Below the pieces are notes generated by a model. It had not been told where the DNA came from, made no database searches, and was given only the letters and a program-made list of their open reading frames with translations. This document shows, piece after piece, positions 7,359 to 54,204 of a stretch of DNA of 64,000 nt (within the stretch, counting starts at the first letter, position 1; every line of letters starts with the position of its first letter). The stretch comes from Yuukianura sp. NJ FZ-2021 (taxonomy: Eukaryota): positions 992,001 through 1,056,000 of the forward strand of contig CM102283.1 of the NCBI GenBank assembly GCA_046563655.1, read 5' to 3'. The position numbers were made by a program, and so were the translations under genes.

Positions 7359-8090
7359 TTAGGCTATGACACAGCTAGATTTAAGTTTTTCCGCTGCTTT
7401 TGCTTTTTCTTCTTCAGCTTTTGCCCGAGCTTCCTCTTCAGCCGCTTGTTTTGCAGCGTCTGCAGCGGCATCTGCAACTGCCGCTGCTACTGTAGCGATT
7501 GCCGCTGTTCCCGCGACTCCCCCAGCTGCCGCGCCCAATAGCAGCGCTGCTTTTTCAACCTGAGATTTTCGAAAAGATTTTAAATAAGAAATTGAGAACT
7601 TCAAAATGAAAAGTGGGTGCAACAGTTTAAAAATTGTACAAACCTGTTCGCTTTTTGAAACTCCATATTTCCATTTCATACACAAATGCTCGCAGTTGTT
7701 TGAAAGTAAGTTGTACTCCAATTGTTGCGCAGGATAGATCCACTTCCGAGCCTCTTCAATGATAAGCTCTGCTGACCTCGTGGGGTCAAATCCTTCTAGC
7801 GACTTCAACTCGTCAATTCTCGCAGTCTTATTGTTAATACGACATTTGCCGCCTTGGGCGACATCGACAAGCAGCTCTTCTTCGACCTTGCCTACTCCAT
7901 CACCCAGATTCATTAAGTGAATGACACTGTCGAACCCTACGTACATTCCCCAGTGAATGCACGTTTCACGCTTGAACTCTATGAGGTCAGTGACCTCTGC
8001 CAAGGTCAACACTTCCTCCGCAGTGGTGTAAGGGCCTACTCCTTTGTCGTGCGTACTACATTGAATCATCCTGCGAAGTAACTTCGACAT
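7359..8090 (-). CDS. LRAT/PLAAT (HRASLS-like) NlpC/P60 phospholipase-acyltransferase
   Basis: HWGMYVG, VIHL and YNLLSNNCEH catalytic motifs. One in-frame intron at about 7560-7643. Ala-rich helix, then C-terminal CVIA*. Confidence 0.85.
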   Translation of the reverse strand: MSKLLRRMIQCSTHDKGVGPYTTAEEVLTLAEVTDLIEFKRETCIHWGMYVGFDSVIHLMNLGDGVGKVEEELLVDVAQGGKCRINNKTARIDELKSLEGFDPTRSAELIIEEARKWIYPAQQLEYNLLSNNCEHLCMKWKYGVSKSEQVCTIFKLLHPLFILKFSISYLKSFRKSQVEKAALLLGAAAGGVAGTAAIATVAAAVADAAADAAKQAAEEEARAKAEEEKAKAAEKLKSSCVIA

Positions 8091-10439: not shown

Positions 10440-11573
10440 ATGATGTCAGGATATGGCGGGTATGGGGCACAGGACTATGGACACAGTCCTGGATATGGAC
10501 ATGGTGGCTACGGTCATGGACATGGACATGGACATGGACATGGTGGCTACGGTCACGGTGGTGGTGGCTACGGCCATGGCGGAGGTGGCTACGGTGGAGG
10601 TCACAAGAAGGGCCACAAAAGCTTACTATCCAAACTGAAATATAAGCACAAAGGGAAAAAAGGCGGAAGGGGTACAATTTTCACTCATAAACGCGTCAAA
10701 AACTGCGTCAAGCAAAAAATTCACGTTGCACGCCAAACATCACCCAAAATGTTTTCTATCTAGCTGTTCTCCTTTTCCAAAATTTAATGATTGATTATTT
10801 TTTGGACACTCTGTTTAGGACATGTAAGCTATCCGCAGTACCATCACAAATATGTTCACAGTCACTACCATGGCGGCGGTCACGGACACGGGGGTGGATA
10901 CGGGCATGGAGGAGGTCATGGACACGGCGGCGGATATGGCCATGGGGGAGGTCATGGACATGGGCATGGAGGTGGCCACGGACACGGAGGCGGACATGGG
11001 CACGGCGGAGGTCTTGGTCATGGCCACGGCGGAGGTCATGGACATGGCCACGGCGGAGGTCATGGACATGGCCACGGTCACGGACATTCTAGTGGATACA
11101 GTCATACAGAACCAGGTCACGGGCATGGTTTGTCACAACAAAAACTTCAAAATTATTCCCCTTTTCAGTTTTTTTTTTGAATTTCGACTGTATAAAATGT
11201 ATTTCCTTTAGCTCACGGAGGTCACGGGGGTCACAGCGGGAAAGGTGAAACTTGAATTACAAAATTGGATGATCTTTCTTAAAAACTATCTGTTTTTGTA
11301 GCCTACGGATACAGCGAACCTTACCCAAATACGGAGTACACCAACAAGATCGAAGTCGTAGAGGAGCCACCCGTACCACTGCCGGAGTCGTCAGATGGCG
11401 CTACGGTTCCGAAGTTTCCGAAAAAGCGGCGCGTAAAACCAAAACTGGAATTTGAAGTGTCACAAAACCATTCTTTTCCAGAACTTTTGCAACAATCGTT
11501 TAAACAAGCAAACTCTGATTTTAGCAGGGACGAAAATCTTCCACCACAAAGAAACAGCAGCTACGATTATTAA
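10440..11573 (+). CDS. Glycine/histidine-rich low-complexity protein, about 4 exons
   Basis: GGHGHG/GGYGHG repeats in exons at about 10440-10670 and 10819-11127, short exon at about 11211-11244, last exon 11302-11573 ending SSYDY*. Confidence 0.75.
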
Positions 11574-13641: not shown

Positions 13642-14419
13642 TTAAAGTTCTCTTATCATACAAGCTACAAATTGATCAGTTGCTGTTGGGAAACGTTTGT
13701 TTCCTTGTTCGTCCAGTGCTTCTGCGTAGTACGCTCGATCGATCTCTCTAAATCCGTTCTTGATTGCTGCCAAACGAGTGTATGGACTTGAAAAGTAGCT
13801 TTCAACCAATCGGAATCCACGACTCTTAATCAATTTTATACTTCTAGAGTACATCTCTGACACAAGTCCCCTCCGTCGAAACTCTGGGTCAACTGAGGTC
13901 ATGAGTAAATCTGCATACGACTCGACTCCAAATTCTTCCAGAACGTCATGTCTTCCTCCAAAACATTTGAGAAATCCCAGAACGTTTTTGTGCGAATCTA
14001 GCGTCACGGGAGCATCCGGTCGAGTGGAATCCTTGTCACGTTTTACCGTTATGCGCACGCCTGCCACCTATTTGAATGACGAAGCACAAAAAGTTGAAAT
14101 GGGGTCACATAACAATTATTGAATTTACGCAGTGTCATGCGTTCTTCCGCTTTTAAATGGCGCTTTTTTTAATTTTGAAACCAACCTTGCCAGACTCTTT
14201 GTGAATGGCCATAAAGCTGAGTCGGTCGTTTTGGCGGATGTAGCAATCTACGACTTGGTTGACCTCGTCTCCAAGGTCATCTGTGTACCCTGCGAGGCTA
14301 AACATAGTTTCGTCGGGGTAAAAACACCGTTTGAGATGATCCTGCACTCTGGGAATGTCTTCGAATTCAATCATCTTGAATTCAAAATCTCCCCAACTTC
14401 CCTCCACTATTTCACTCAT
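13642..14419 (-). CDS. Arylalkylamine N-acetyltransferase-like GNAT, copy 1 (2 exons)
   Basis: MSEIVEG...HLKRCFYPDE...SVDPEFRRRGL (acetyl-CoA motif)...SSPYT. Intron at about 14068-14185. Confidence 0.85.
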
Positions 14420-18529: not shown

Positions 18530-21500
18530 ATGAAATCAGCATTAGTTCTGATTTTTCTGTTGGGTCCTTATTTCCTTTTATTTTTCAACGCATATGTATA
18601 CGCTCAAGGTGGAGGTAATCGTGATGCTATTAAATAATGCTATAAATTCATTTTTTTTTACATATTTGTGATAATCTAGAAATCCAGAACTGTGTTTGAC
18701 TCATTTTAGATAAAGGTCCAGGCCATGCGTTGCTTCCAACTAGTAAACCAAATCTACCTGGAGGTAATGGAATTATAGGTGATTCCTTACCTGGCACATT
18801 CTTTGCAGACTTCAAACCACCTTATCCTACAAACAGATGTAAGCCAGCATTAAACAAGGTAGCGCGATGCTCAAGGGTTGAGCATAGGTCTTCTGGAGGT
18901 AGTTGACAATTAATATAACTTGTATCAGTCGCAAAGCCGTTGAAACGATTAAAAACCATTTTCACGAGATTCATGCAACGAAATGTCGCTCATAATGTTC
19001 AGTGCGGAACGGGGGCTTCTTGTGCACGAATTGCGCCAAGATGGTAAAGAACCGTTTGAAAACGTTTTTAACGCAAATATGTTGAAAAAACCCTTGCATC
19101 AAAATGTTGTTCAAATTGAGCTCTGAACAGTTTTCATCCGCTTCAAAATTACAGTGATGAACAACAAATTATTGTTCTCAAGTTTGTACAAATTTTGAAA
19201 TAACAACGTCCATTAACCCCAAGGTTCCTTGACAAGTAGATGCAAATAAACGTCGAATTATTACTCAGTTATTTTGACGCTGGGTAATGCAAGGTTCCTT
19301 GACAACGAAAAGGTGTTTGTTTTGTTTGTTTTCCGTTAACGGAAAATAAACAAAACAAACAACCTTGCATTACCCAGCGTCAAAATAACTGAGTAATTCG
19401 ACGTTTATTTGCATCTACTTGTATACGTGCACAAAATTGAACGTTGAAAGGTGTAAAATATGATTTACTTTAAAATCAAAATCGGTTCAAATAAATGCAC
19501 CAGGTGATAAATTAAGTGCATAAGCACAAATGTTGAAATAACAACGTCAACTACCGAGCGTCAACATAACTGCACTATTTGTGTTACGTTTGCAACAGCT
19601 TGGAAGTGTGCATCATGCACAAAATTGAACGCAGTGGGGGAGGGATCAAATATCGCTTGCTTAAAATCAAAATTATAAAAATTTCTAGTGAATGCAAATT
19701 TGAAACCTGTAAGCACTATTCACATATTAAACATTTAAGCCGGATTTTCTACCCTCTAATCAGTTTTAATTTAACAACGTAACTAAACATACTACCGGAA
19801 AATCATCATATGAAAACTCCGTTGTTTAAAAATAGTATTTTGAGTATAATGCAGACCTAGCACAAAAGTTTTGAGGACTTGAGAAACAGTAGCGCGAAGC
19901 AGCCGCAAACTTTGGCGCTGTTAATGTAAGACTTTAACAGTGCAATGTAGACCTAATGAAAACACTTGAGCCATGCATAACACCCCGTCTGCGATGGGGC
20001 GTATGTTTCAGTGGAAACGGTCCTAAAATACAGGACAGACGGACAGACAGACAGAAAAGTCGTATCAATAGTCTTCTTCAGCATGTCGTAGACATGCGTC
20101 TCCAGAAGATTAAAAGTAGCATAAAAATACAAAAATCTATTTTCAAAAGTATAATTTTTAGGGTGGCAAGGATTGACATTGAAGAAACAAGAAAAGTAAA
20201 AATAAATTATAAATTGAATTTAAAAAAATATTTCATAGAGATACTTAATAATAAATTATATTGTATTTAGTACTCTTGCTGGTCCTTTTCCATATCAATC
20301 GAGGACCAGAGACACTGGATTTGAATTTGGGATTGGAACTAACCGGAAGTTTGAAAGTAAAACTTCACTAGTAGTTCCAGAACAGTTGGACCTTCGTGTG
20401 ACCATTGATGGTCTTGAAGTCAAAGTGACCAACCGCAAAGCTTTGACATGGGACACCCAAACTGTAAGTTTAAGATACATGGGTCCAGATGGAGCTACGA
20501 TGGATACAACCCTCACACATGGATCTCCTTACATGACTTTTAAGTTTAACAAAGCCAAGGTGGTTATAAAAGCCATCAATAATGGATACAATGCAGTGGT
20601 GCAAAACTTTACTTGGCTACAGAAAGGTAATCTATAAGAGGGAAATTCTTTTGTAATAGAAGCAGAGGTGGTAAGCCTGAAGTAAACCTGTGCAGGCTGC
20701 ATCCGTGCGAAATAGCTAAAGCTGCAGGCCGCAGGCGTACCGCCTGCCGTTTTTGGACTGGCTTGCAGGCTTCAGGCGTGCGGACTTGGGCGGCAGCAAT
20801 GCAGACCAGAACAAATGTTGCTGGCTGACACCTCTGAAGATTCGAAGAAAATTATATTTTGCTTATTTTCTGTTTTCTAGGAAAGCTTGGAACATTGGTT
20901 AGTGGAAACACAAACGTGGAGCATAGACTGTACGTAGTTGAGGGCACAGTTAATGACTTCGTCATAAGCAAAGATAATATAACATCAACACAGCCAACTA
21001 CAGCCACGATTCGAATAGCAAGAGTTCTCCAATCAAAAGACAAATCTCTCTTGGATGCGCATGCGCGAACATATCCCACTGGTCTGACAATGAGATACAG
21101 CGTAACAGGAAACGAGAGCACACAGACATGGACATGGGATGTGGTAGGGGATCCAAAGAATTTGCTTGTAATGAGTTGGCCACATCATCGGTATGTAAAA
21201 TAATTTTAGATACAATTTTAGAATAAGGTACATGAAGAAATTTTTTTCGTGGGATTTCAGGAGAGTCTTGCAGAAACCGATCTATAAAGACATTGTCTAC
21301 TCGACGATAAAAGGTGAAATGCGTGGAGTAGCTGGAAACGTTTGGGTTCAAAAACACCGTCTTACAACAACTACTTGGTATCCCGCCTTCAAACCACAGG
21401 CATCATGCCTTCCGGAGCTCATAAAGCTACTGGAGTATGAAGTCAACCATCTTTACGTGAACCCACCAGGCGAATTGTATCATTGGGGAGGAAATTTTGC

Positions 21501-23462
21501 CGCAAGAGCTCAATTGGCGCTAATTGCCGAAAAGTTGGATCGAATGGACCTTGTCGCCAAAGTACTGGATGTGATAAAGCAAAGTGTGGAATACTTCCAT
21601 GTTGATACGTATAGGATACGTGTTGCATATGAAACGGGCTGGGGCGGATTTGTTAGTCCATATGGCTGCAACAACGTAAGGAATTTTTTCCCTCAGAATA
21701 TTGCGTTGTTAATTATTTTCATTCTAGATGCATTACAATGACCACCATCTTATCTTTGGCTACTTGCTTTATGGCATTTCTGTGATTGCTAAATTCGATC
21801 CCGAGTGGTTTAAGACTCACAACGAGGTGGCAACTAAGTAAGCTAATAATCTTACATTTGTTTGCACAATTCTTTTCAATTTAATTTAAATTAATAATAA
21901 TAATTAAAATTTAATTCTGCTTTTTTAGCATTGCTCGAGACATCGGAAATCCATCGCCGGCGGATCCTTACTACCCGTCGGCCCGTCACATGGATTTCTT
22001 CCATGGCCACTCTTGGGCAAGTGGAATTGGTCAAAGTGGGGGTCCCAGGAACCAGGAAAGTGTTAGTGAAGCAATCAATGGATACTACGCACTACAATTG
22101 TATGGAATCATTAGTAACAACCCTGAGTTCACGGATTGGGCTCGTATGCTTCTTGCAATGGAAATTGCAGGAGCACAAGAATACTGGCACTTGTATCCGA
22201 AAAGAAAAGGGAATTTGACACCATACCCTGAACAAGATGTTCGAGATTTGACGACATTTGCAAACATATTCGCTGGAAAAGCAGGATCATTTCCTCTTTT
22301 TGGAAGTCCTCAAAACAAAATTCAAGTGATTTCCATTGTCACCCTTCCAGTGACTCCAATGGGCGAAAATTTATATGATAAAGAATGGATGGAGGGAGTT
22401 TTGCCTTACGTTCTACCATATATAAAAGCGTTGCCCGATGGAGATGACTTCTATTGTGGTAAGTGTAAAACTTTTACTGTCGTATATCCCAAGAGGCTAA
22501 ACTTTCTAAAAAAAAATCCAGTTATATACGACGCTTACGCAAGCGTGAATCCACGAGAGGCGTACAAGTATTCTCTTTTGGTTGCTGATTGGGGTGGTGG
22601 CCACACAGCGACAAATCAGCTGTATTTCATTTCGACACAACCGAGTGCTGAACAAATCTGTACGGGAGATATGACGAATTCACCGGTGGGCTTCTTTTAC
22701 ATTCAAGATGTTGCTACTGGAAGATACGTCACCGGTTTATCTGTTTTGCTGGCAAAATTTAAAATTGTAGAACTGGGTTCAAAATTTGAACTGAATTTTA
22801 AGCCTGGTGGCGGAAGTATCAAATCCCTTCAAAATGGCCAATACGTCAATGCAGGCTCAAGTAAATCTAGCTTAAATGCAAACAAGGATATTGCTAGTAC
22901 ACAAGAAACGTTTCGTTGGATTGATAACAAAGATGGAACATATGCACTTATGGCAATGTATACAAAAACTACTGTTCAAACCCAACCTACTGGACAGCTT
23001 GTCAACAATGGCCAACTTTCAAAGTATAAATTAATACCAACAGATGACGCACCACAGGCGCCTGAACCAGACGTTCCAGCTTCTGGGAAACTTCTCAACG
23101 TGGGGTCAAACAAATACGTGACCGTTCTAAGTACCACTAAGGAACTGATGGCCAACGAAAACGCTGCAGGACAGGCAACAACTTTTAAATTTGAAAACAT
23201 TGTGGGCAACAACCCGTTCCAGTACTACGCTATCAGGAATGAAGCAACTTCTCTGGTTGTTACTGCAAATCCAACTCCCGTGAACTTGAAAGCTTCGAAT
23301 AAAAATGCACTTGGCTACGAGTATTTTCGTTTTGTGGAATATAAAACGGCCTTCATTATCATCCATGTGGCTAGTGGTAATGCAGTTAAAGCAGACGGAA
23401 ATACAACCCTTCGCAATGATGATGTTGACATCGGTAACAATGCTTTGTGGAAAATTGTTTAA
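18530..23462 (+). CDS. Secreted GH81 endo-1,3-beta-glucanase with C-terminal fascin-like beta-trefoil repeats, about 9 exons
   Basis: Signal peptide MKSALVLIFLLG...; GH81 motifs PYPTNRWW, GSPYMT, YNDHH..FGY, FFHGHSWASG, RNQESVSEA. Introns at about 18615-18709, 18839-20161, 20196-20270, 20627-20880, 21191-21260, 21676-21728, 21837-21928 and 22459-22521. Confidence 0.9.
18852..20112 (-). mobile_element. Helentron/HINE-like element, copy B, inside GH81 intron 2
   Basis: Reverse-complement of the copy A ends, (CTGT)n-like microsatellite at about 20030-20053, perfect 3' hairpin ATGCTCAA-GGG-TTGAGCAT at 18867-18885. Confidence 0.7.
19232..19422. repeat. Near-perfect palindrome of about 190 bp
   Basis: ACAAGTAGATGCAAATAAACGTCGAATTA... 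is mirrored by ...TAATTCGACGTTTATTTGCATCTACTTGT; centre TTCCGTTAACGGAA. Confidence 0.9.
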
Positions 23463-24188: not shown

Positions 24189-24966
24189 TTAAAGTTCTCT
24201 TATCATACAAGCTACAAATTGATCAGTTGCTGTTGGAAAACGTTTGTTACCTTGTTCGTGCAGTGCTTCTGCGTAGTACGCTCGATCGATCTCTCTAAAT
24301 CCGTTCTTGATTGCCGCCAGACGAGTATATGGACTTGAAAAATAACTTTCAACCAATCGGAATCCACGACTCTTAATCAATGTTATACTTCTAGAGTACA
24401 TCTCTGACGCAAGTCCCCTTCGTCGAAACTCTGGATCAACTGAGGTCATGAGCAAATCTGCATACGACTCGACTCCAAATTCTTCCAGAACGTCATGTCT
24501 TCCTCCAAAACATTTGAGAAATCCCAGAACGTTTTTGTGCGAATCGAGTGTCACGGGAGCATCCGGTCGACTGGAATCCTTGTCACGTTTTACCGTTATA
24601 CGCACGCCTGCCACCTATTTGAATGACGAAGCACAAAAATTTTAAATGGGGTCACATGACAATTGAATTTACGCAGTGTCATTCACTCTTCTGGTTTTAA
24701 ATGGCGCTTCTTTTTTTAATTTTGAAACCAACCTTGCCAGACTCTATGTGAATGGCCATGAAGCTGAGCCGGTCGTTGTGGCGGATGTAGCAATCCACGA
24801 CTTGGTTGACCTCGTTTCCAAGGTCATCTGTGTACCCTGCGAGGCTGAACGTGGTTTCGTCGGGGTAAAAGCACCGTTTCAGATGATCCTGCACTCTGGG
24901 AATGTCTTCGAATTCTATCATTTTGAATTCAAAATCTCCCCAAGTTCCCTCCACAATTTCACTCAT
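24189..24966 (-). CDS. Arylalkylamine N-acetyltransferase-like GNAT, copy 2 (2 exons)
   Basis: Near-identical to 13642-14419, same intron position, intact ORF. Confidence 0.85.
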
Positions 24967-28666: not shown

Positions 28667-29384
28667 ATAAGCGAGTTGTTTGGAAAAGCAATGGATGGAT
28701 GCAAGTGATACATTTTAAAGGTATCAAAAAGTGCAAAAAAATGTGTCTCATAAAAAAGAACGCTGAAATCCTCTTTTTCATCCATCCACATTGTCTCGTA
28801 CTATGTTCATCATTTTAATTGCACGTTTTCTGTACCACGTACGTTAGTAGAATCCAATTTTTTGGAGATCCGTTATAATTTTTTGTGATGACCTTTAATA
28901 AATATGCATGACGCGTGCGCTAGTAAGAGTTTTTAAGCGGTGGGAACTAAATTATGTTACTGCGGATGTAGATGATTGAGCCTATTCAGCGTCAAGTGTG
29001 TCTGATCTGTGTCACGTCCATTTCACACAACCTGCCAACTGCCAAGTTACAACATTAGCTACACATTGCAGTTTATCAAAGTTAATGTGCTAACTTGGAA
29101 TTCAAAACACTTTCAGTTTTAATTTACTAAACGTTTATTTTAAAACTTATTCAATATCACAATGGATTTCAAAATTTCAAATCGTTTCGAAGTGGGTAGT
29201 CGGAGACCTGCGATGGACTCGGACGGGTTCAGGGCCCCTCCGAATACAAATGAAATCAGTTCCAGGAAGACTCATCTTCAAGCATACAAGGTACAACACG
29301 GCTGTTTTTGGTCAAAGTCAAGCCAGGTCAAAGGTCATTCTTTTTGTTTTGTTTTTTAAGTTTCTGCAACTGTGTGGCCTGTGT

Positions 29385-30744
29385 ATGCTACTTATATTCC
29401 TCAATACTTGTGCCTGGGTCACTGAGAAGAAAGTACACGGAGAAGAATGCTTGGATTCGGAAGAGTGTAACGAGAGGGCGCTGCTTTCTTGCGGAAGTAA
29501 TGGCAAGTGCAGTTGCTCCAATTCCTTCCTGTTCGATAAAGAGCTTGATCGCTGCGTGGCTCGTGTGGGTGAGAAATGTGGGTCAATCGCTGGACGGAGT
29601 GACTTGACCTTTCCAGTCAGTTGTGTCGATGGAGCCATTTGTGACGAGAGTTCTGGAGGCTGTGTGTGTACCGACGACTATTTCCGACTCATCAACCGAA
29701 CTTGTCTCCGGAAACGACGGTACAATGAAGCCTGTGAGTCGGATACCGAGTGCTCCAAGGATATCGTCAATGCCAAACCGCTCGTATGCCTCGAAGGCCT
29801 CTGTACTTGTGATCCCAGTACACAGTTCTACGACCTTGAACGGAAACACTGTGTTACCCTGGTAGGTCACCAGTGCAGTATGGACTTGGCCAAGTACAGG
29901 AACGAGTGTGCTCAGAACGCCGTTTGCTCTGGAGGGGTTTGCTCATGTGCAGAAGGGTTTGCGCAGACTGTGGGTGGAGGATGTGGATCTGGTTATGGTG
30001 CTCAGTGCAACACTACTGAATGCAGCGATTTGTTCTATCAGTGCCTGGAGGGGAAGTGCGAGTGTCGGTATCCGTTGCACCAGCGATTTGATCCAAGGAT
30101 GGGTGAGTGCTTGAGCCTGGTCGGTGGACCGTGCACGATCAACGTCACGGAGCGCTTGCCCAATGCCGTTGTGATCCGATGTACCCGGAACGCAATTTGT
30201 ACTGACCTGGGGTTCTACAGTAGTTGTGAATGCATCGATGGTTTTGTTCAACGAACAGCCTCAGGGTAAAATTTATGCTAAAAAATCATCCTACATTTCT
30301 AATGAAAAAGTTTTTTCTTTCATTTTTTAACCTTGTTTGTGCATTTGTTTGGAGATGATTTTAAAATTTTGTTCCATGTTAGCGAATGTGCACCAAGTTT
30401 TGGCGAAACCTGCGAAGCTTTCGAATGTGACCCCACAACGCCGCTGTTTTGTAAAAACGGACGTTGCGGTTGTCAAGATGAGCTTCAATTCTACGACGCC
30501 AGTCGGAGACAGTGAGGCGCCTAGTATATATAAAACAATGACTCCCTGGCTAGATACGTGATCTTTGACCTTTGACCTTAGGTGTTTGGGGCTGGTGGGT
30601 TCACGGTGCAACCCGCAGGAAATGAATCAGTGCGTTCAGTTCTCCAGTTGCATTCAAGTTGGAGCGGAGCTGGAAGGAAGATGTTTTTGTGATCGATATG
30701 CCCAGGAAGTAGAGAATCGTACATGCGTTTACAACGAAGGTTGA
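29385..30744 (+). CDS. Cysteine-rich EB/EGF-like repeat extracellular protein
   Basis: Repeated C-x-C-x(4)-F/YD...C modules. Introns at about 30266-30381 and 30512-30580. The start may lie in an upstream exon (acceptor at 29360). Confidence 0.75.
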
Positions 30745-31329
30745 CAATGTCAACTTGGCATTATGATCTTATTATGTGGCGTCTACATCAATTTTCTCAA
30801 TCAACGTACACCCTACCCCGACCAACCATTTCCCACCACGAAGTAACATTTATAAGTATAAGGAAGTATTCAAACATTTTGTCCCAAATTCAGGGGCCTT
30901 TAACAAGTTGACCTTTGACCTATTTTAACACTCGAACCGCCTAGGGAGTCTTTTAGTCTTCATTTGACAAACGCTTCCTAAATGTTTCCGGGGCGTTTAG
31001 AAATAAAGGGAGAAGAAATCCCCTCGTTTAGCGCCGCAATTCAGAGGATTAGTCAGACCCAGTCTTCAGAACAAACTTGGAATCACATGTTATTGTGGAG
31101 TTATGGAATCAGTCTAATAAATAAATAAGTTTTACCACCGCTCGCTGTTAATCTGACAATTTTCCATTAATTTATTAATCGAATAATTGATTGCGATTGT
31201 GAGTTTTCCCACCAAAGGAATTAGCTGGCTGAACTGAGGTAAGTTTGGCTAAATCGGCTTTTGATTTGTTAACTTTTTTTTGACTTTTTTTTTCAGGACG
31301 CGTTCACGCAGCTAATCTTCCAGGGAGGC

Positions 31330-35570: not shown

Positions 35571-36500
35571 ATGTCGCCACTGCATAACATTTCCGAAGAC
35601 TTCTAAAGAAGTCGCCTAAGGAACAAGAAGAGTCACTTACGCTGAAATTTGACTTGGTAACCTATCAACTGCACAACTCCGATGCTGAAGCGTCTGAGAT
35701 CTCACTGACTGGAGCCTTGGAATTCAGGGTCAATGGCGGAACATTGAATAGAGGAACTGATGAAGTGAAAGTCGTTGGATCATTTCCACTGTTTCTTCAA
35801 CCGGGTCAAATGAAACCACAAGACATGGATCCCTTGGCTCGCGGGCATGCGCAGGAGAAACTCAATCACTGGCTCAGCGAATCGGGAGTATCCGAAGGAT
35901 CCCGAATCTGGAACAAGACGCAGAATGCTCAAATTCCACTCAAAACGGCGTTTCTCTTGCCTGGGATCAAATTGGTGCAAGGAAAAGAGCTGCTCTTGAT
36001 ACATCTTTTGCAACTTGTTCTTGGTAAGATCAAGATAATTAGTTTAATTTAATTAAAGTAGCTAATTAAAACCGCTACGACATTAAAATTTTATTTTTGT
36101 ATAACAATAGAGGACGCTTTTGAGCAGTACAGAGCAGTCGGCGTTGACTTTGATGAATTTATGGATATCAGCAACACCATCGTTTCCAATTGTCTTGGAG
36201 AAAACTACGACCAAGATTTTGGCGCCAAAACGACATTTCCACACTTCGCCATTGTCAGTTCGTTGAGTCAAAAGTTGCGCGGGATAAGTTAGGCGCGATC
36301 CGCCCTTCGAACTTGTTAATCGGCAACTAGTGAAGATTTTTGTTACAGTCGAAGCAGTTTTGTCACTGCGCAGGGCTATTGAAGTCAACGTCGTGGACAA
36401 CTGCGTGCTCACCTCACCATTCAACTCACCTGATCATAAAATTTGAGGGGAAAAAGTGACTTGAAGGATTTCAAAAATTTTGTTTCAATGGAAAAGCGTT
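35571..36500 (+). pseudogene. Decayed paralogue of the 43174-44509 gene
   Basis: Alignable to 43174-44415. TAA at codon 12 after a deletion, a further stop, and large internal deletions in exon 2. Confidence 0.8.
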
Positions 36501-42800: not shown

Positions 42801-43173
42801 ATTGCTTCGCTATTATCATTATGGGCGGTACAACCGGTATATTTAGGATTGCAGTGGCCGGAAGTATATTTTACAACAAACTCAGTTTTGCAATAAAAAC
42901 ATACAACAAATTTCTGGTCTTTTCGCCTTTATTCAGAAGTTAGTGAAAGCCAAACCAAGGCTATGGGTTAAGTGTATTGTTTTTTGTAATGCTGGATAAC
43001 AATGATTTTAACGACATTTTGTTTATTTTTAGGCGAAGGAAAGCTACTAACCCAGTTTCAAAACTTCCGCGGTGTTATGCCGCTCCATATAATACTGGAG
43101 TACAACAGTCACTGCAAACTTTTGCTTTTTGGTTCACTGGCCTTTCTTTAAAAAAAACAGCATTCGATTCAAA

Positions 43174-44509
43174 ATGGCGCCACTTCCAAACGTTTTCGAA
43201 GACTTGAGACCCTTACGACTGAAAAAGTCGTCTACGGAACAAGAAGAGTCACCGACGCTGAAATTTGACTTAGTGACTTATCAACTGCGCAACTCTGATT
43301 CCGAAGTTTCTGAGCTTTCAGTGACAAGCGCCATGGAATTCTGTTTCAACGGCGGAACAGTGAGTAGAGGAACTGATGAAGCGACTATTGTCGGATCATT
43401 TCCACTGTTTCTTCAACCGGGTCAGATGAAGGCACAGGACATGGATTGCTTGGCCCATGCGCGTTCCGAGGAGGAACTCGATCATTGGCTCAACAAATCG
43501 GGAGTAGCCGAAGGATCCCGAATCTGGAACAAGGCCCACAATGCTCAAATTCCACTCAAAACGGCGTTTCTACTGCCAGGAATGAACTTGGAAGATGGAA
43601 AGGAGCTGCTCGTGATACATCTTTTACAACTTGTTCTTGGTAAGATCTGAATAATTAATTATAGTACATTATAATAAATTGAAACTAATCAAAATTACAG
43701 CTAATACATTAAAATTTTGGGAAACAACAGAGGACGCTTTTGAGCAGTACAAAGCAGGCGGCGTTAACTTTGATGAATTTATGGATGTAAGCAATACGAT
43801 CGTTTCGATTTGCCTGGGGGAAAACTACGACCAAGACTTTGGCGCCAAAACGACATTTCCCAACTTCGCCGTTGTAAATATGTTGTGTCAAAAGTTACGC
43901 GGGATGTTTGAAATTCGTGGACTGGAAGCCGCGAAGTACGTTATCTTCGATTTCATTGAATTCATCGAAACAAGCTTCTGGGAATTGGATGAATGGTGGG
44001 CCGACTGTCCATCGTACAAGGCTCGTCCTAAGACGTTCTACTTTATGCGCAAAGAAAAGACGCATGGACTCAAAACTGTGATTGAACTTGTGTGTTTTCT
44101 AGAAGGAGTGACCATTCTACCCAAAGTCAGGCGAGATCCGCTTTTCGAACTTATGAAACGACTGTTGACCAAGGTTGTTGTCTCAGTCGAAGCAGTTTTG
44201 TCTCTGCGCAAGGCTATTGAAGACAACGTCACGGACAACTGTGTATTGCTACGCACACGGAAAAAGACGTTGCACGAAGCTCTTAAACGCACTCTTGTCC
44301 AAATTCGTGAAACGATTCAAGATTTTGCTGCTTTCGAAACCCAGCTGAACATAAAATTTGAAGGAACGAAGTGCCTGGAAGGGTTTCAAAAATTTTGTTT
44401 CATTGGAAAGGCGCTGGTTGATGCTCAAATTCAGTATTTACTGGTATCAAAAATTCATGGAGATTTTGATGTTGTGGTTGAGCTAAATTTGGAAAAACTC
44501 GACGGCTAA
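43174..44509 (+). CDS. Uncharacterised protein of about 425 aa, 2 coding exons
   Basis: MAPLPNVFEDL...; intron at about 43640-43700 joins the two long ORFs in frame; no family recognised. Confidence 0.75.
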
Positions 44510-45346: not shown

Positions 45347-46744
45347 GGCGAGAAGAGGAGGTGAAGTTGGCGGGAATTTTCAAAATTGAACAGAAAGTTG
45401 AAAGTGACGGACACAACCTTCCGGAGCCCATTTTATATCCAGCGGAGTGCAGCCTCTAGTGAACTGCTGCGTTGGTAATCGCATGACAATGTCACACGGA
45501 GAGACAGAGGCCACTTTCCAAAGTCTTATCATGTGACGATAGGCGATCAACCGATGTGTTTAACACTAGGTGTGAGTTGTGAAAGAGGATGTTGCACCGG
45601 ACTCTTGACCTCTGACCTCACAGTCCAATAGAGAAAATGCACATGACAACATGACTTATTCCAAGAAGAAACTTGTTGACTCATGCGTCGCCGTGTCAGA
45701 AACAACAAAGTTCTTCAGTGAACAAAGAAGCGTCTGTTCAATGTTTTCAGTTTCAATGACTTTTGGAGAGTTTGTTGTCTGCCCTAAACAAATAGAAAAC
45801 GATGGGATTTCAAAAAAAGAAAAGAATTTTGAAAATAACAAAGAATCATCGGTTTTATCTTTTCATTCATTTGGATTTTGATTCATCAAACATGAATTTT
45901 GAATCTCAAAAATAACGGAAACTTGTTTTCTGAGTTAAAAAAAGTAAATGCGCAGATGAGTAATTAGTAATAAATCATCATTACAATTGAACAAAACATG
46001 AAAAGTTTGAGAATTTCTGGAAAAGTTAAAAAACGAAAAAGTTGGAACATTTGGAACCATGAAATTGCTAAAAGGGAAAGCCTGATATGTTGCAACATTT
46101 CTTAGAACAACTCAAAATTAAGAATCTGAAAATGTTACGACATTACTGAACAATTTATAAAATGTCGTAAGTGTTGAATTTTGATTGTTTCTGCCATACG
46201 GGCAAATTAGCCAACGGATAAAACCCAGCTTTTTTTTAAATAATGACTAGACATGACAAACAATTTTTAGCACACTTTTAGCGTTACCTGACTTGTTCTC
46301 GTCATGTGATTGAATTTGGACCACGTAGGCTGGAAAAGATAAGATAATTAGCCAAAAATTATCTGTCTATGACGCACTGCAATTTGCAATTTCGCAAACA
46401 TGCAGTAAATTCGCGAAACTGATTTCGGGTAATGTATTTCCAGGAAATAGCAAAATTAGTCAAGGTGCTTGTTTGCAATTGCAATCTACCCAGTCATTTT
46501 AAATTAGAAAAGTGAACAATTTCTGTTGATATCGCCGATTCTGTCGATGAGTCAAGCCTTTTTAGTAACTATCTAACTACGGTGTTTCCGCTTGCACAAA
46601 AGCCAAAGTGCGTGTGACCCCAGCGTACATTCAAGCAAAAATAAGACAAATCAGTGCCAACTTTGTCAAAAGTGTGACCTTTTAACCTCGACCTGAAAGT
46701 GATTTCTTCGTTTGAAAAATTTCTACGAACAACTTTTTGCAAAA

Positions 46745-48692
46745 ATGGCAACGCGTCTATTTTGTTTTATATTACTCGTTTTTGTAATTTTCGAATCTTT
46801 CCAAAATTTTGGAACTGTGGCGTCGGAAATTGATTCTCAGCCGAATACAAACCAACCAGTTTCACTGGACACAAAACTGATTTACGTTTTGGAAGGAACA
46901 AGTGTGAATATTGTGGCAAAAGCAGGAGAAGGAAGAGCAATTCAGTTTTGTCGGTGGGACGCCGTTAACAACTCAAAAGTGGGAACAAGCGGATTGATTT
47001 TTGTGAATGAAGATGACGACGTGCCCGGATTATCTGTAATGAAAATGCAGCAACCCGAAGAAAAAAGTTCAGAGGTCAAGGGCTACAACTCCTTTGGAGC
47101 AGGACTTAGCAATGGAGAGTGTGGCATCACTATTCAAAACATAACACAGGAGGATATCACTACTTGGAAGTATTTGTTGATTGAATTTAGCAAAACTGAT
47201 GGTGATCCAGTAGCCGTTACGAGAGATATTCGGTTGGAAACTGCTAGTAAGTTTAAATATTTAAGTAAAAACATTACTAAAAGTTTTATGTGTATATAGT
47301 TATAATTTAGCACAGAATTCATAATTTTTTGTTTTTAGTTGAGCCAACAAAGCCTCAAATTGAAAATAAAGAGCTTTTGAAAAAAATCAGCGAGTCATGG
47401 ACGAATGAAAATCCGTTAGCAATTTCGTGCTGTTCACAAAACGGAGTTCCGGCGCCACAACTTCAATTTATGTTAGGTAAGCTTTCGATAGACAAAATTT
47501 TTAGAAGCATGTTAGTCAAACATTCTCGATTTTTTTTTTAATTTCATCGTTTGAAAATTTGTAGATGAATCAAAACTGCCAATCGTGTCAGAACAGCTCC
47601 AAGATGGAAATAGTACAAAACAGTGCATTTCCACTGAAGTGAACTTGAACCGTCGTGACAATGGAAAAAGGCTGAAGTGCGTTTTGGAACATTTAACATT
47701 CAGTGGACAAGCGGAGGACTCGGCAGATGTAGAAGTCACTTGTGAGTTTTACCATGAGTTACATATTATATGAAAACAGAATTTCCTAAAATATGGTTAT
47801 TACCATGTACATAAATATTTTCTAGATAATAAATCGTGTTATTCTGTTTACAGTTGTTCCAGAAGTTGTCTCTGCTTTGACTTATCCAGGAAATGGAACA
47901 ATTGAAATACAGCTTCCGGCAGAGGAGAGTTCGGTAACGATTCGCTTTACGGGAAACCCTCAGCCAATTATCAGTTGGGAGCTGCAAAATCCAGTTTCTC
48001 AAAGCTTCGAGCCGGTTTTACCAAAACAGTTTTCCGTGAGGACGCTGAGCAACACGGAAGAAGTGAGTGATATTTTATAATTTTCTCCAGCATTCAGTTT
48101 TTTTTTCAATTTCACCTAACATTGCATTCACCTTTGACCTTTGACGTTTAGATGTTTGCATGGGACTCAATTTTGAGTTTTACTCCAGATGGAAGTTTAA
48201 ATTCCAGTAAAAGTTACACTTTCAAAATTGTTGCTACAAATGAAGTTGGGAGCGTCGAGATCTTTGTAGTGGCAAACCAAATCTTTACTCCTACGATCAT
48301 ACACATCCAAGGTAAGATATCCACACACACACACACATATTTTTAAATGCGCAATTTAAATAACTTGTTTAACTAATTTTCTCTTTAACCTTTTTTTACG
48401 GATTATTTATCATTTTTACACAATGTGCAAATTCATGTTGAAACTATATAAAACTACTTCAGTGGATTACTAAATGTACTTTTTTTTAATTTCAGAAGCG
48501 TTTAACTTGACGTGGGTGTTGATTCCACTAATTACGGCGTTAATTTTAATTATTTTGGTTATAATCTTCTTAATCTTGGCGAGAGCCAATGGATGGGCGT
48601 GTTGGAGGCAGCATGTAGCAGTTTACTACACGCAGGAGAAAGGTAAGGATCTCGTATACAATCCTGTCATGACCACAACAGACTACGCGTGA
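46745..48692 (+). CDS. Fasciclin-3-like Ig-superfamily type I membrane protein
   Basis: Signal peptide, Ig motifs (GLSNGECGITI, CCSQNGVPAPQL, LKCVLEH, FTGNPQP), TM segment LIPLITALILIILVIIFLIL, short tail ending TDYA. Confidence 0.75.
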
Positions 48693-48895
48693 ACGTAAAA
48701 CACCGCTTAAAAATTTTCAAAAACATTTTTTTTTAGTTTTTATAAAATTAGTTTCTCTGTACGCCATTCCATAAACATTAGTGTTTTATTTAACTTGTGT
48801 TGTATTTTATTTTAAGTTTCCAGCAACTTATAATTATTTTTCTAATATATTATAGATTATGAACGAAACATAGTTTCTAAAAAAATATTATTAAT

Positions 48896-49360
48896 ATTGT
48901 AGTGAAAATGGCCTTTTAGGCCTAAAAGAAAAAGAAACAACACACTACAAGTTTTAGGTTCTCCGCTTGGTGCGGAGTTGAATGAACTTTTTTTATTCAA
49001 AGTTAAAATGAAAATGTGAAAAGCACAGTTTGACCTCGCAGAGGTCAAACTGGCGAGTTGTAGAAAAGTCTTCTGTCCAAGCGGAGCAGAAGGTAGAAGT
49101 TGAATGAATCTTTGTACAGACAGGGCTGGGTCCTTTTATAGGGCCCCAGCCGGAAACCACAGGGAGTTACAAGTTACTCCTAATTATCATATTTGTCAAG
49201 TAAAGTCTATTTTTACACACAATGTCAGTGACCTAACTAGTACAATCCGGTTTCTAGTTTACATTTTTACAAAAAGACAAAAGATACTAATTAGAAGATT
49301 TGCATGTTTCGATTATGTGAAGTTGGAGTCGCGCTGAGTTGGAACGGTCATTTCATGACA
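48896..49360 (-). repeat. Duplicated TATA-containing hairpin unit, copy 1 (candidate ncRNA gene)
   Basis: Direct repeat of 51191-51644; minus-strand TATAAAAG, TCATTC Inr-like motif, hairpins, AATAAA. Confidence 0.85.
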
Positions 49361-51190
49361 TTCCTCCCTCCTGAGAGTAAGAACTCTCCTGAGTTCGTTC
49401 GGAGTTTGACATGGAGGGAGTCCAGTGCATCAGCGGGCTCCAAGTTCACCTAAAAATAAAAATAAAATTAAGTAAAATTTAAAAATTATGAAAAGAAAAA
49501 TGCATAAAAGAAATTTTGTATTATGGGGTCAAAGGTCAAGGGACAGCCTTTTGCAAATTGCAAAAGGTCAAAGGACAACTTACCGGACATACCGTGGTGT
49601 AGTCACCCATTGTCAACTTTTGTCCCAAGACTGTTCCGAAGGTTCGATGACCTTGTTTTTGGTGAGGTGAAGGAAACGTTTTTAAGCTTTTCAGCTTGGT
49701 CTTTTATAGGTAGTTTCTGTTTCCTTTTTGGAATTTTAAATTTTTGACATGATTTTGAATTTTGGAGTTAAAAATGAATCTTTTTGCAACTTTTTGTAAA
49801 ACAAATTTATTTTTCATGAAAACAACATGTCGCACCATTTAACTCTGCAGTTCGATCGCTTTCGCCGACTGCTTTTTGAGCAATTTCAATGGTTGCGCAT
49901 AAGGAGATCATGATTTTAGTTTTTGTTTTAAACAATCAGATGCAATTAGGATGACAATTATTACTTGAATTTGAGCAACTTTTGAAGTTCCTGCAGTTTC
50001 AACAAATCTCAGAGGTTAATTTTCGCACTGAAAATCTTTCTTTAACATGTACTTGTGAAACTGGGATTGACTTACTAAAAGTTAACAACAAATTTCAGCG
50101 GTAATTCGGTTCCAAATGTGTAATTTTAATTGATTTACACTGTTTTGTTTACCCAAGTCAGTTCGAATCAGCATTTTGACTTCATGTCCCTCCATATTTA
50201 GAACCCTACATATTGAGTCCATTGATGGATTTTGGGCTTTGAGCCATTTGCTTGATTTTTAGGAAACATGACTGGGCAAACTTACCAGTTTTGTTTTAAT
50301 CAGTTTGAAATCAAGGGAATTGCGACAAATCTCGGTAAGATTTTGAAGTAAGAATGCAAATTTTAGAAATCATTTCATCTTCTGAATTTGGTTTTTGAAT
50401 TTGACTTCTGTTTCTGTGTTTATTCTGAAATTACAGAATATTCAAGATAAAGGGCATTTTGCCCATGAAAGTTTTTCTCAATTTTTACAGTCAAATGTTT
50501 TTGTACTTGAAATTTTCTAATTTCAGATAATTTGCATGATTATCTGACTTGAGAATTCTGTTTTGGATTTAAAAGCTACTTTTGTTTTCTGACTTTTGAG
50601 TTTTAACAAACTCAAAAAGAATGTTTTTTTTTGTATGGGGTCAATCAAGGTCACTGCAATGCTGAACGCATTGCATACCTTCCCTTCCTTTGTTTTTGTT
50701 TTTGTTTTGTTTTTTTTATAAATTTTGAAATTTGACCTCATCGGGGTCAAAAGGAATTATTTTGATTTGACCTTCATCAAGGTCGACGTGATTTTTCAAA
50801 ATTTTCTCGTATTTGACCTCTTAGGGGTCAAACAAATTTGTTTTTTCGACTTGACCTTTCAAGGTCAATACAATTTTTGTAAAAAATAAAAATTTGACCT
50901 TACGTGACCTCAGGGTCAACGTAATTCCTTCAGGAATTTTGTTCATGATTAGTGACCTTTGGTCACTAATTCAGTATTTTCTCCCTCCATCACAAGATGA
51001 AGGTTTGGAACAGCAATGTGCTGTCCAAAGCACTTGATGCACACGCATCCAACCTCAGGTCAACAGGTCAACGTTCTTTTGCCCTGCCTCACGAAGAGGC
51101 ACAGAACGGACCACCGCCACGAGGTTTTTCCTCTCTGGGTCAACACAAGTGTTGGCCCAGAGGTCATGGGTTCGCATATCTCGTCCACCA

Positions 51191-51644
51191 ATTGTAGTGA
51201 AAATGGCCTTTTAGGCCTAAAAGAAAAAGAGTCAACACTACAAAGTTTGTTTTGCCTTCCGTGGTGGAAGGTAGAAATGAACTTTTTATTTTCAAAAGTT
51301 AAATGTGAAATTCAGTTTGACCTCGCAGAGGTCAAACTGACGAGTAGTAAAGTCTCCTGCTCCAAGCAGAGCAGAAGGAAGAAGTGTAATGAATGTTTGT
51401 ACAGACAGGGCTGGGTCCTTTTATAGGGCCCCAGCCGGAAACCACAGGAGTTACAAGTTACTCCTAATTAGAATATTTGTCAAGTAAAGTCTATTTTTAC
51501 ACACAATGTCAGTGACCTAACTAGTACAATCCGGTTTCTAGTTTACATTTTTACAAAAAGACAAAAGATACTAATTAGAAGATTTGCATGTTTCGATTAT
51601 GTGAAGTTGGAGTCGCGCTGAGTTGGAACGGTCATTTCATGACA
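51191..51644 (-). repeat. Duplicated TATA-containing hairpin unit, copy 2 (candidate ncRNA gene)
   Basis: Direct repeat of 48896-49360; right half nearly identical, left half diverged. Confidence 0.85.
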
Positions 51645-52043
51645 ATATATTACGCTGTTGAATAAATTTAAAAAAAAAAGGAGCAAGTGCTATAGTGTAA
51701 GTGGTTTTGTGCCACCTAATCAGCATCAGAATCGAACTGATTAGCATGGGAATAACCTTAATCTTCCTTATTCAACCATCCACCACTGAAACCAGTACCA
51801 AAAGATTCATTTGGAAGGTGATGTAGCATTCACACCTTTTAACTCTACTTTCTAAGGTTCTAGGGATGTGATTTTTTTTGAAAAAGGTTTTTCAAACATA
51901 GTCAATTTTCAAAATCTATTTTAAAACTTATTTTATTTTGGGATACAACACGAGGTAAGTTGTTTTTTCGGAGGGTCGGGACTAAATGCGTAAGTTTTAT
52001 GGATTCATGTGACTGTACTCGTCAGCATTCGAGAGTAGATCTT

Positions 52044-54204
52044 ATGGCAAATCCGGAACAAAACCTTGAATGTGTCTCCAATGAACAACTTCATCTGAAT
52101 CCTCTGAGTACAAAGTAAGTTATAGTAAATATGACTTATGAAAGAGTATAATAAAATTGATACCAATCATATTTTTATTAAACTTTGGACTTATTTTTTC
52201 AATTTCATGTTAGTTTAGATTCACCAAAGACATGCGGACCTGTTAGAAACGAGGCACCGGGAGGGTTGTCCATTTCCCAATGGGTTATGAAACTGTCATA
52301 CGCACGACTCCCGCCATTTTGGTTCAAATTTATCTTGTTCATTATTTTGCCACTTGGGATTTGGCTGACTTCATACGTCATAGTGGGAAAAGATGCACTG
52401 CCTGGTGGTTCTATCTTTGTACTTGTTCTACTTGGATGTGGTGGAAGAATTATTGGTAAGAAATAAGAAATTTTTCAAAAAATAATTTTTGAAAAGCAAA
52501 CTTTTGAAATCCAAAATCGTTTTATTTCAGGTTTCGGTTTTGCTCTTATTTCTTTGCCACCAATGCTCGGAATGCTCGGACTGGGTTTAGTTATACGAAA
52601 CGTGCCTTACGTCGATTATGGAAAGCACTTGGATCCTGCATGGTCTCCTCCAATTCGGTACATCTTGTGCTAATACAATGATAAGGCTGTAAAATTTTTC
52701 AAAATTTTGAGTTTATAAAACAAAATTTGTATTTATATAGACAAATAGCCCTAACGGTAATCCTAACCCGAGGAGGACTGGGTCTGGATTTGGAAATTCT
52801 GCGCAAACTCAAGAGTCTGATTTTCAGATTTGCAATTCTCCCAACAGGAATTGAAGCTATGACAGTCGCTGTTATTGGGCACTTTCTTTTGGATTTTCCA
52901 TGGACATGGGCTGTCCTTTTGGGGTAAATTAAAAAAAAAGTTTTCGAAAAAAGTGACAATTTTTCAAAATTTTGAATTTGAAACTTAGCTTCGTGTTGGC
53001 CCCAGTGTCTCCAGCCGTCGTAGTGCCCAGACTCCTGCACCTCAAAGCAGAAGGATTTGGAGTAGACAAGGGAATTCCTGTTTTCATCATTGCAGCAGCG
53101 TGTTTGGACAATGTTTTTGCCATTTCCTGTTTTGGCGTTTGTCTCAATTTTGTATTTCCCACGTCAAGTCTCACTTATTCAATTTTGCAAGGACCGCTCC
53201 AAGTTGTTATTGGAGTGGGTTATGGACTCATATGGGGCTTCTTCCTAGGAACGCTGTTTAATCAAACACAAAACGTAAGTTTTTTAATTTTTTACATTTT
53301 TGATACATTTTTGAATTTTGCTTTTGGAATTATTTTTTAGGCAGATTCAACCATAACCTTCGTTCGGCTAGTTTTGACGTTTGCCGGTGGCGCCATTTCG
53401 GTTTTGGGATTTTCAAAACTGGGGTATTCTGGAGCGGGGGCGTTGGGATGCTTATTGTCGTCGCTTACAGCGTCATGTCTCTGGAGAATACGCAAGGTTA
53501 TCACTATCGGGCAAGTACGGAATTTGAAATGGCGCGGGAAATTTTGAATTCAAATGTACAAAATTTTGGTTTTCGTGGTTTTAGGATCCCGTTGCTTGGG
53601 GCTTATACATTCTCTGGTTCATTTTTGAGCCTCTGCTCTTTGGAATAATTGGGACACAAATTGACATTTTGTCACTGGATCTCCAGTTAGTTCAAATGGG
53701 CGTGGTCACAATCGTCATTGGTGTTGGTGTAAGTCTTAAATTTTCGGAGAAAAACTCAATTTTTAATGAATTTATTTTAGATTTTCTAAAATTATTGTTC
53801 ACTTCTTTGCAATGCTTTGAACGCAGGTTCGGCTTACTGTTGCATTCTTGTCTGTAACGAAAGCTCGGTTTACTCTTAAAGAGAAACTGTTCGCTGCCAT
53901 TGCATGGGTTCCAAAGGCCACTGTCCAGGTACAGCTAACTTTGCAAAACTCCTGCGCAGAAGATCATTTTGTGCCTGCTTCTGCGCATATGTAACAATCT
54001 CATTGAACGTAGGCAGCTATTGGACCTATTGCACTGGACATGGCCGTTTCCCAAGGCACTCCGGAAGAAGACAAAATTTTAGGTGAAAAGATATTGACGC
54101 TTGCGGTTCTCAGCATTCTGTTGACGTCGGCTGTCGGGGAACTCGGAGTAATGCTCAGTGGGCCCAGATTTCTCACCAAGACTCAACAAACGCAACGAAA
54201 CTAA
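52044..54204 (+). CDS. Na+/H+ antiporter, NHA/SLC9B family
   Basis: LPPMLGML, IALTVILTRGGLGLD, LAPVSPAVVVP, GIPVFIIAAACLDN, AWVPKATVQAAIGP. Stop at 54202-54204. Confidence 0.92.

Follow-up and report, generated by a model that had tools for sequence, protein, structure and literature searches.

A probable protein-less long terminal repeat retrotransposon with mosaic, hairpin-rich terminal repeats in Yuukianura sp.

A stretch of 64,000 nucleotides from Yuukianura sp. NJ FZ-2021 (GenBank assembly GCA_046563655.1, contig CM102283.1, positions 992,001 to 1,056,000 of the forward strand), here called the window, was analysed around an element of 2747 bp at positions 48898-51644; all coordinates are those of the window. 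The window is intron-bearing animal DNA with about 37% G+C, and ordinary genes are found around the element. Pfam was used to check 26 of the 51 stop-to-stop frames of at least 110 aa, and ten of these 26 carry domains (LRAT, GH81, Suv3, LDH, AMP-binding). A preliminary description, made from the sequence alone, had taken two similar units in this region for a duplicated gene of a short structured non-coding RNA (ncRNA), transcribed by RNA polymerase II (Pol II), or for the 5′ end of a long non-coding transcript. Our analysis argues that the two units are the long terminal repeats (LTRs) of a single mobile element.

The two units are direct copies of 463 bp (48898-49360) and 452 bp (51193-51644), with a spacing of 2285-2295 bp. 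They are 89.5-89.6% identical over 468-470 columns in blastn, and the MAFFT alignment and repeat finding agree, so the two copies of about 460 bp reported before are confirmed. An nhmmer profile of both copies recovers 51193-51644 with an E-value of 1.4e-166 and 48898-49360 with an E-value of 2.6e-172, and three further rows are palindromes inside the copy at 51193-51644 itself. The signals that had been described on the minus strand are also in place. The same TATA box, TATAAAAG, occurs in both copies (49140->49133 and 51425->51418) and is followed by an initiator (Inr)-like motif, TCATTC at 49107->49102 and TCATTA at 51392->51387, with an A located 35 nt past the initial T of the TATA box, where a CATT motif about 30-35 nt on had been noted. 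ATG is absent between this Inr-like start and AATAAA in both copies. AATAAA itself (48997->48992 and 51290->51285) lies about 100-108 nt downstream of the start, close to the 110 nt given before, and precedes a GT/T-rich tract.

The ends of the copies and the sequences at their inner and outer edges are those of an LTR retrotransposon. Read on the minus strand, both copies start with TG and end with CA. At the inner edge of the upstream copy is a candidate primer binding site (PBS) with the TGG start that is complementary to the CCA-3′ end of a tRNA, and a polypurine tract (PPT) consisting of purines at all 12 positions is found at the inner edge of the downstream copy. In plus orientation, neither a TGG start nor a purine tract occurs at the required places. 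Both flanks carry ATAT, a target site duplication (TSD) within the 4-6 bp range of LTR elements, which is moderately informative as it is short and AT-rich. By a rough estimate, the probability that these features co-occur by chance is far below 1e-6 (one in a million). We conclude, with a probability of about 0.9, that the segment 48898-51644 is a single LTR retrotransposon, protein-less and non-autonomous, in minus-strand orientation. The preliminary description had itself named a high-copy transposon fragment among the outcomes that would overturn its gene, and what we find is in kind a transposon part (TG...CA ends, candidate PBS, PPT and TSD). The features are as follows.

48898..51644, minus strand: whole element, probable non-autonomous LTR retrotransposon, 2747 bp (direct LTRs, PBS, PPT and TSD in the expected order)
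51193..51644, minus strand: 5′ LTR, copy 2 of the preliminary description, 452 bp, TGTCATG...CACTACA (MAFFT, blastn, nhmmer)
48898..49360, minus strand: 3′ LTR, copy 1 of the preliminary description, 463 bp, TGTCATG...CACTACA (MAFFT, blastn, nhmmer)
48894..48897, no strand: TSD ATAT beside the 3′ LTR (same four bases at the other end; a 5-bp reading mismatches)
51645..51648, no strand: TSD ATAT beside the 5′ LTR (read from the sequence)
51180..51190, minus strand: candidate PBS TGGTGGACGAG, 2 nt (AT) past the 5′ LTR
49361..49372, minus strand: PPT AGGAGGGAGGAA, abutting the 3′ LTR directly before TGTCATG
49361..51192, minus strand: internal region, 1832 bp, non-coding (no retroelement protein match)
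49133..49140 (3′ LTR) and 51418..51425 (5′ LTR), minus strand: TATA box TATAAAAG in U3, flanked by 7-bp inverted arms GGCTGGG/CCCAGCC
51387..51392, minus strand: Inr-like TCATTA, putative start and U3/R border of the 5′ LTR, from its spacing to the TATA box (TCATTC at 49102-49107 in the 3′ LTR)
48992..48997 (3′ LTR) and 51285..51290 (5′ LTR), minus strand: AATAAA, in the loop and 3′ arm of hairpin H3

The promoter of an LTR is in U3, the stretch between transcription start and poly(A) site is R, and the part after it is U5 (Kojima 2024, PMC10886601, in its account of LTR layout). If the copies are the 5′ and 3′ LTRs, the TATA box and Inr-like motif thus mark the U3/R junction, and AATAAA with the GT-rich tract marks the poly(A) site between R and U5. 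The spacing of the motifs would give a U3 of about 255 bp, an R of about 135 nt and a U5 of about 70 nt.

Between the LTRs no recognisable protein is encoded. Among 21 internal frames of at least 40 aa, four frames gave five sub-threshold, unrelated Pfam matches (best E-value 0.014), none of them related to retroelements, and 48 internal frames of 20-39 aa gave no Pfam match at E<=0.01. Gag and pol domains (protease, reverse transcriptase, RNase H, integrase) were not found in these 21 and 48 frames. The longest frame that touches the element has 141 aa and is on the antisense strand. As the interior is without recognisable coding capacity, the element is regarded as non-autonomous.

The R-U5 regions of both LTRs fold into an identical set of five hairpins, H1 to H5, with z-scores of -6.3 and -7.0, and 0 of 200 shuffles were as good.

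49070..49092 (3′ LTR) and 51354..51377 (5′ LTR), minus strand: H1, at the start of R (folding of both R-U5, RNAalifold)
49026..49052 (3′ LTR) and 51313..51339 (5′ LTR), minus strand: H2, the R hairpin, perfect 12-bp stem CAGTTTGACCTC/GAGGTCAAACTG with a 3-nt loop, 13 bp in the 5′ LTR (folds, repeats)
48985..49004 (3′ LTR) and 51280..51300 (5′ LTR), minus strand: H3, with AAUAAA in its loop and 3′ arm (folding)
48961..48977 (3′ LTR), minus strand: H4, CTCCGC-ACCAA-GCGGAG, 14 nt after AATAAA
51255..51271 (5′ LTR), minus strand: H4, CCTTCC-ACCAC-GGAAGG (folding, realignment)
48910..48922 (3′ LTR) and 51205..51217 (5′ LTR), minus strand: H5, GGCCT-AAA-AGGCC, at the invariant end of U5 (folding)

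The three stems that had been singled out before are all among these hairpins. The perfect 12-bp stem present in both copies is H2. The stem said to differ between the copies while still pairing is one helix, H1, in which two changes to G-U pairs and an inserted G that fills a bulge are seen. The 6-bp stem with a different sequence but preserved pairing is H4. RNAalifold on the MAFFT alignment predicts 36 pairs, among them five in which one side has changed to give G-U and one in which both sides have changed, with pairing retained in all six; it missed H4, because the two H4 hairpins are offset by one column. When the H4 17-mers are aligned alone, 12 of 12 cells are paired and four of the six pairs are changed on both sides. 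A shuffle control reached the observed value in 33 of 500 cases, a comparison that has little power with two sequences. An alternative and more parsimonious alignment of H4 requires one two-sided substitution and a two-sided deletion of 1 nt, which is still compensatory.

The position of H4 is also conserved. Its offset from AATAAA is nearly equal in the two copies (+20 and +19). When the diverged segment of 45 nt was shuffled 20,000 times for each copy, a hairpin of at least 6 bp occurred anywhere in 747 and 721 cases, but at the place of H4 (+-2 nt) and with a 5-nt loop in only 27 and 21. The conserved match thus exceeds the chance expectation. H4 comes 14 nt past AATAAA and ahead of the GT/T-rich tract, and cleavage for polyadenylation thus probably takes place in or near this hairpin.

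Divergence between the two LTRs is very unevenly distributed. In the U3 segment 246 of 248 columns are identical, followed by 75 of 83 (plus 4 gap columns) in the first 87 columns of R, 45 of 82 (plus 8 gap columns) in the following 90 columns, and all of the last 40 columns of U5 (Fisher p = 7e-15). The diverged block extends from the putative U3/R border to 40 nt before the end of U5, and the earlier statement that the upstream half is nearly identical while the transcribed half is diverged is borne out. The LTR pair of a retrotransposon is identical at the time of insertion. A lone insertion free of selection cannot build up compensatory changes, and we therefore consider it most likely that each R-U5 block derives from a different family variant, on which selection acted during its active time. 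Such a mosaic would arise most simply by gene conversion with another copy as donor, or by recombination of two elements; for a family that inserts at ATAT every time, the matching TSD is compatible with the latter route as well. For plants, the relevant part of PMC7251063 gives gene conversion as predicted in 25% of LTR pairs, and a section of PMC13570524 records non-autonomous elements that are chimeric and owe their LTRs to other families. The U3/R joint would be the place where two parents are brought together by an inter-molecular first-strand transfer. An ordinary cycle of reverse transcription would still leave both LTRs alike.

RNA structure is not restricted to the LTRs. The leader, taken as the 503 nt after the 5′ LTR, folds with a z-score of -8.2 (0 of 100 shuffles as good), followed by -5.1 for the next 665 nt and -2.1 for the last 664 nt (20 shuffles each); the concentration of structure toward the 5′ end of the element is real. 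In one leader fold (51131-51199, minus strand), UUCACUA at the end of U5 pairs with UGGUGGA at the start of the PBS, and a strong 12-bp hairpin follows the PBS. A stem that occludes the PBS by pairing with U5 is thus possible in this model.

The leader also carries multiple copies of a motif that is related to the R hairpin.

50731..50967, minus strand: leader palindrome array with TTGACC/GGTCAA arms, related to H2 (repeats, pattern matches, leader fold)

The pattern TGACC-N(1-16)-GGTCA occurs 14 times in the window where 0.45 occurrences are expected. Eight of the 14 matches are within the element, two as the R hairpins and six in the leader, where they occupy five sites (50733-50965). A sixth leader site, at 50768, is imperfect, and two of the leader sites were found by repeat finding to be 81% and 86% identical to H2. 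These motifs could be RNA hairpins for packaging or dimerisation by the Gag protein of a partner element, or DNA sites for a factor. The half-site AGGTCA is found 88 times in the window against 25 expected (3.5-fold), with 21 occurrences inside the element; the enrichment is window-wide and not confined to the element, which bears on any reading of the motifs as nuclear-receptor sites. The degenerate form RGKTCA has about 10 sites per kb in the element and three elsewhere.

The AGGTCA sites of the window include several perfect direct repeats and one perfect inverted repeat, all with 1-nt spacing, in the manner of nuclear-receptor-type half-sites. Examples of such arrangements are 29325-29337, 30566-30578, 30909-30921, 45606-45618 and 7984-7996, and some are in coding frames. 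Near the 3′ end of the element's interior, GGGTCA-A-AGGTCA (49526-49538) and AGGTCA-A-AGGACA (49565-49577) are separated by a perfect 10-bp palindrome, CCTTTTGCAA-A-TTGCAAAAGG.

If each unit were instead a Pol II gene of its own, specifying a short structured ncRNA, tandem-duplicated and kept by selection on its structure, the presence of a TATA box, an Inr-like start, AATAAA and a GT-rich tract all within one unit would be accounted for, as would the strongly structured R-U5 with its one compensatory hairpin; a start and a poly(A) site within one LTR could in principle also release an R-only RNA of about 135 nt. Left unexplained are the TG...CA ends, the PBS and PPT exactly at the inner edges, and the 4-bp TSD. 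The best-conserved part of the unit is moreover the 250 bp upstream of the TATA box, reaching to the TG end. No matching Rfam family exists either: the search for a known ncRNA family gave no match at gathering scores over the whole window (Rfam 15), and with the limit relaxed to E<=10 in 48000-52500, 51100-51400 and 51640-51830 there was no credible match, only chance-level ones far below the thresholds (MIR396, bxd_5, pntA, SNORA7). We consider a gene of this kind highly improbable. Of the proposed Pol II structured RNA, the promoter- and poly(A)-like signals, the strong structure and the compensatory hairpin remain, while the free-standing gene pair does not; the 5′ end of a long non-coding transcript comes near the truth for the 5′ LTR.

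Two further explanations concern the origin of the repeat pair and of the interior. A plain local segmental duplication of the type A-B-A′, with strings that resemble a PBS, a PPT and a TSD by coincidence, would fit with the single locus seen within the window, with an LTR pair that is mosaic rather than near-identical, and with other duplications in the window, such as the 141-aa frames at 13642-14067 and 24189-24614. It would have to produce TG...CA, a TGG start 2 nt from the repeat, 12 purines in 12 positions, ATAT and the ordered signals all by chance, at the rough odds given above, and it has a very slim chance of being correct. An LTR element could also stem from an autonomous LTR retrotransposon or an endogenous retrovirus by recent internal deletion and not belong to a dedicated non-coding family. 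Internal deletion is a common origin of non-autonomous elements, and remnants of coding domains together with a continuum of sizes are described in the portion of PMC13570524 that deals with them. In the element, however, none of the 69 internal frames (21 + 48) has kept a remnant of gag, protease, reverse transcriptase, RNase H or integrase, and the interior is AT-rich and hairpin-rich and holds the array of H2-like palindromes. A recent deletion derivative is therefore distinctly unlikely.

Several observations weigh against the assignment as an LTR retrotransposon. Repetitiveness is the usual proof of a transposon, and neither blastn nor the nhmmer profile of both copies detected a third copy, solo LTR or fragment in the 64-kb window; the preliminary description had proposed genome-wide BLASTN to find more copies. 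The TSD is only 4 bp long in an AT-rich flank, so that a match by chance has a rough probability of 1-2%, and if the family prefers ATAT targets, the match is no proof of a single insertion. The candidate PBS shows only the generic TGG start: ARAGORN and Rfam found no usable tRNA for it in the window, the lone ARAGORN call, a tRNA-Leu(aag), being outside the element, and in the literature the PBS string and its complement turned up in primer lists only. The primer may be a tRNA-Ala, as the complement of the PBS ends in TCCACCA and a U at position 70 opposite G3 is the hallmark of tRNA-Ala, but a tRNA with A3:U70 would also fit. The LTR pair is, at 89.5%, not near-identical overall. A candidate partner with gag, reverse transcriptase or integrase was not seen in the 26 of 51 window frames of at least 110 aa that were scanned. 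Finally, the plus-sense folds (-65.9 and -63.6 kcal/mol) are at least as stable as the minus-sense folds (-59.4 and -61.1 kcal/mol), and energy alone thus gives no verdict on which strand acts, or on RNA structure versus palindromes at the DNA level. Exact-pattern scans of prokaryotic contigs found no locus for the R hairpin and none for the U5 end, as expected for a collection without animal DNA.

With the LTR retrotransposon as the preferred reading, the following life cycle can be proposed. Transcription by Pol II would start in the 5′ LTR (at about 51390) and run on the minus strand to polyadenylation in the 3′ LTR (at about 48968), and its product would be a non-coding RNA about 2.4 kb long. 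R would end at the poly(A) site some 20-25 nt past AATAAA, and U5 would hold the GT/T-rich downstream element and the end used by integrase, ...CACTACA. An autonomous partner would supply the reverse transcriptase and integrase that copy the RNA in trans, and the 4-bp TSD suggests that this partner may be of the Ty3/Gypsy type. A tRNA annealed to TGGTGGACGAG would prime the first strand, and AGGAGGGAGGAA the second. The five R-U5 hairpins and the hairpin-rich leader would then be cis-acting RNA signals rather than a separate gene, with possible roles in the control of the 5′ poly(A) site, in strand transfer, and in packaging or dimerisation. The anatomy is observed directly; that the element is transcribed, which kind of partner copies it, what its hairpins do and how the mosaic arose is what we infer from it.

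A more far-reaching interpretation, which we regard as doubtful when taken as a whole, is that the element represents an undescribed protein-less LTR family in which the RNA is the selected unit. Its five-hairpin R-U5 would be kept between family variants by compensatory change. The multiplied copies of the 12-bp R hairpin in the leader would serve as a cis signal, perhaps for packaging or dimerisation or as AGGTCA-type factor sites, through which a Gypsy-like partner would be hijacked. The U3/R border would serve as a recombination joint at which promoters and leaders are shuffled between variants. Finally, a capped R RNA of about 135 nt with a poly(A) tail might be released from a single LTR and would correspond to the short structured RNA of the preliminary description.

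The element may have been inserted, in antisense orientation, within the 3′ untranslated region (UTR) of a gene for a membrane protein, and the 3′ UTR of this gene may have been disrupted or lengthened. The last exon of this plus-strand gene (48474-48692) encodes a transmembrane tail and ends with the stop codon at 48690-48692, about 205 bp before the element. By eye, no AATAAA or ATTAAA is found between the stop codon at 48692 and the element, while a plus-strand AATAAA (51656-51661) lies 11 bp beyond it; an insertion inside the 3′ UTR is therefore possible. On the 5′ LTR side and outside the element is the tRNA-Leu(aag)-like sequence called by ARAGORN (51717-51791, minus strand). It has box-A- and box-B-like motifs and is followed about 35 nt later by a run of 10 T, which ends 27 bp before the 5′ LTR (51671-51791 in all). 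A search of 191 nt with the Rfam tRNA model gave no match for it up to E<=10, and it may be a tRNA pseudogene or the head of a short interspersed nuclear element.

Elsewhere in the window, the two 141-aa minus-strand frames at 13642-14067 and 24189-24614 differ by four residues and are 10.5 kb apart. Each is followed by the same palindrome, TGACCTCGT.TCCAAGGTCA (at 14260 and 24807), and neither matches a Pfam family at E<=1e-5; this pair is a recent segmental duplication. A gene for a GH81 endo-1,3-beta-glucanase with a ricin-type lectin tail (20239-23462, plus strand) has its best named relatives in springtails (43-44%), followed by Umbelopsis fungi (40-41%). Among animal genes this distribution is unusual, and the gene may have been transferred horizontally. 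In the protein atlas it was represented by GH81 of fungi only. Searches with two other proteins of the window gave at most 66% identity for an LDH exon, with matches spread over nematodes and arthropods, and a single hit without a name for an LRAT-like protein; by these comparisons the host is an invertebrate animal. At 10791-11180 on the plus strand there is a frame that consists nearly entirely of His-Gly repeats (HGHGGG...), and all three frames are open there. The plus-strand frames at 35588-36052 and 43093-43650 are clearly paralogous, 7.5 kb apart and without a Pfam family, which suggests a lineage-specific gene pair.

The main value of this analysis is in annotation. A candidate for a new ncRNA gene is better explained as the LTR pair of a mobile element, and should therefore be masked rather than pursued as a gene. 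The mosaic LTR pair and the multiplied hairpin are minor points of modest interest. Mosaic LTRs are an example of why the dating of insertions by LTR divergence can fail. If more copies become available, the R-U5 hairpins and the multiplied motif would be a tractable case for the study of RNA signals that enable copying by a partner.

The element is an ordinary kind of mobile element. It shares two LTRs, a non-coding interior bordered by a candidate PBS and a PPT, a TSD and the presumed mobilisation in trans with terminal-repeat retrotransposons in miniature, or TRIMs, and large retrotransposon derivatives (LARDs), as these are characterised in parts of PMC10886601 and PMC13570524. In size it fits neither. 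With 2747 bp and LTRs of 452-463 bp it exceeds the limits given for TRIMs in these parts (below 1 kb, or up to 1.5 kb in the extended definition), and it does not reach the more than 4 kb given for LARDs. It therefore falls in the range of 1.5-4 kb, a size class of non-autonomous LTR elements without a name according to the classification passage of PMC13570524. Helenus, an animal group of non-coding LTR elements with a 4-bp TSD and Gypsy-type partners according to the section on it in PMC10886601, resembles our element in the TSD and in the lack of coding capacity. Helenus, Ajax and Cassandra, grouped as TRIMp3, differ in that their LTRs carry, by the same section, a Pol III promoter derived from a tRNA or 5S RNA, whereas the signals here are of the TATA/Inr type. 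Membership in TRIMp3 (Cassandra, Helenus, Ajax) was rejected, as ARAGORN and Rfam gave no tRNA or 5S match in the LTRs, and so was an identity as a retrozyme, as Rfam gave no match to a ribozyme (hammerhead) at E<=10.

The leader array has a parallel in the Drosophila element gypsy, whose 5′ leader contains a tandem array of binding sites for Su(Hw). In both cases a cluster of short motifs is found a few hundred nt past the 5′ LTR and before the place where gag starts or would start. The motif of our element, in contrast to the gypsy array, is a palindrome with TTGACC/GGTCAA arms that resembles the R hairpin by relation and could work at the level of RNA rather than DNA. ATAT, the TSD of our element, is also the target of the Drosophila elements 17.6 and 297. 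For the R region, the closest parallel in layout is human immunodeficiency virus 1 (HIV-1), where R forms hairpins at both RNA ends, one of which encloses AAUAAA and regulates polyadenylation, and where pairing of R drives first-strand transfer (PMC2645353 and PMC13185573, in their parts on R). Our element has no sequence relation to HIV-1, no Tat/TAR system and no coding capacity, so that the analogy is one of layout only: here, too, a hairpin of the transcript, H3, would hold AAUAAA, and H1 and H2 would lie within R.

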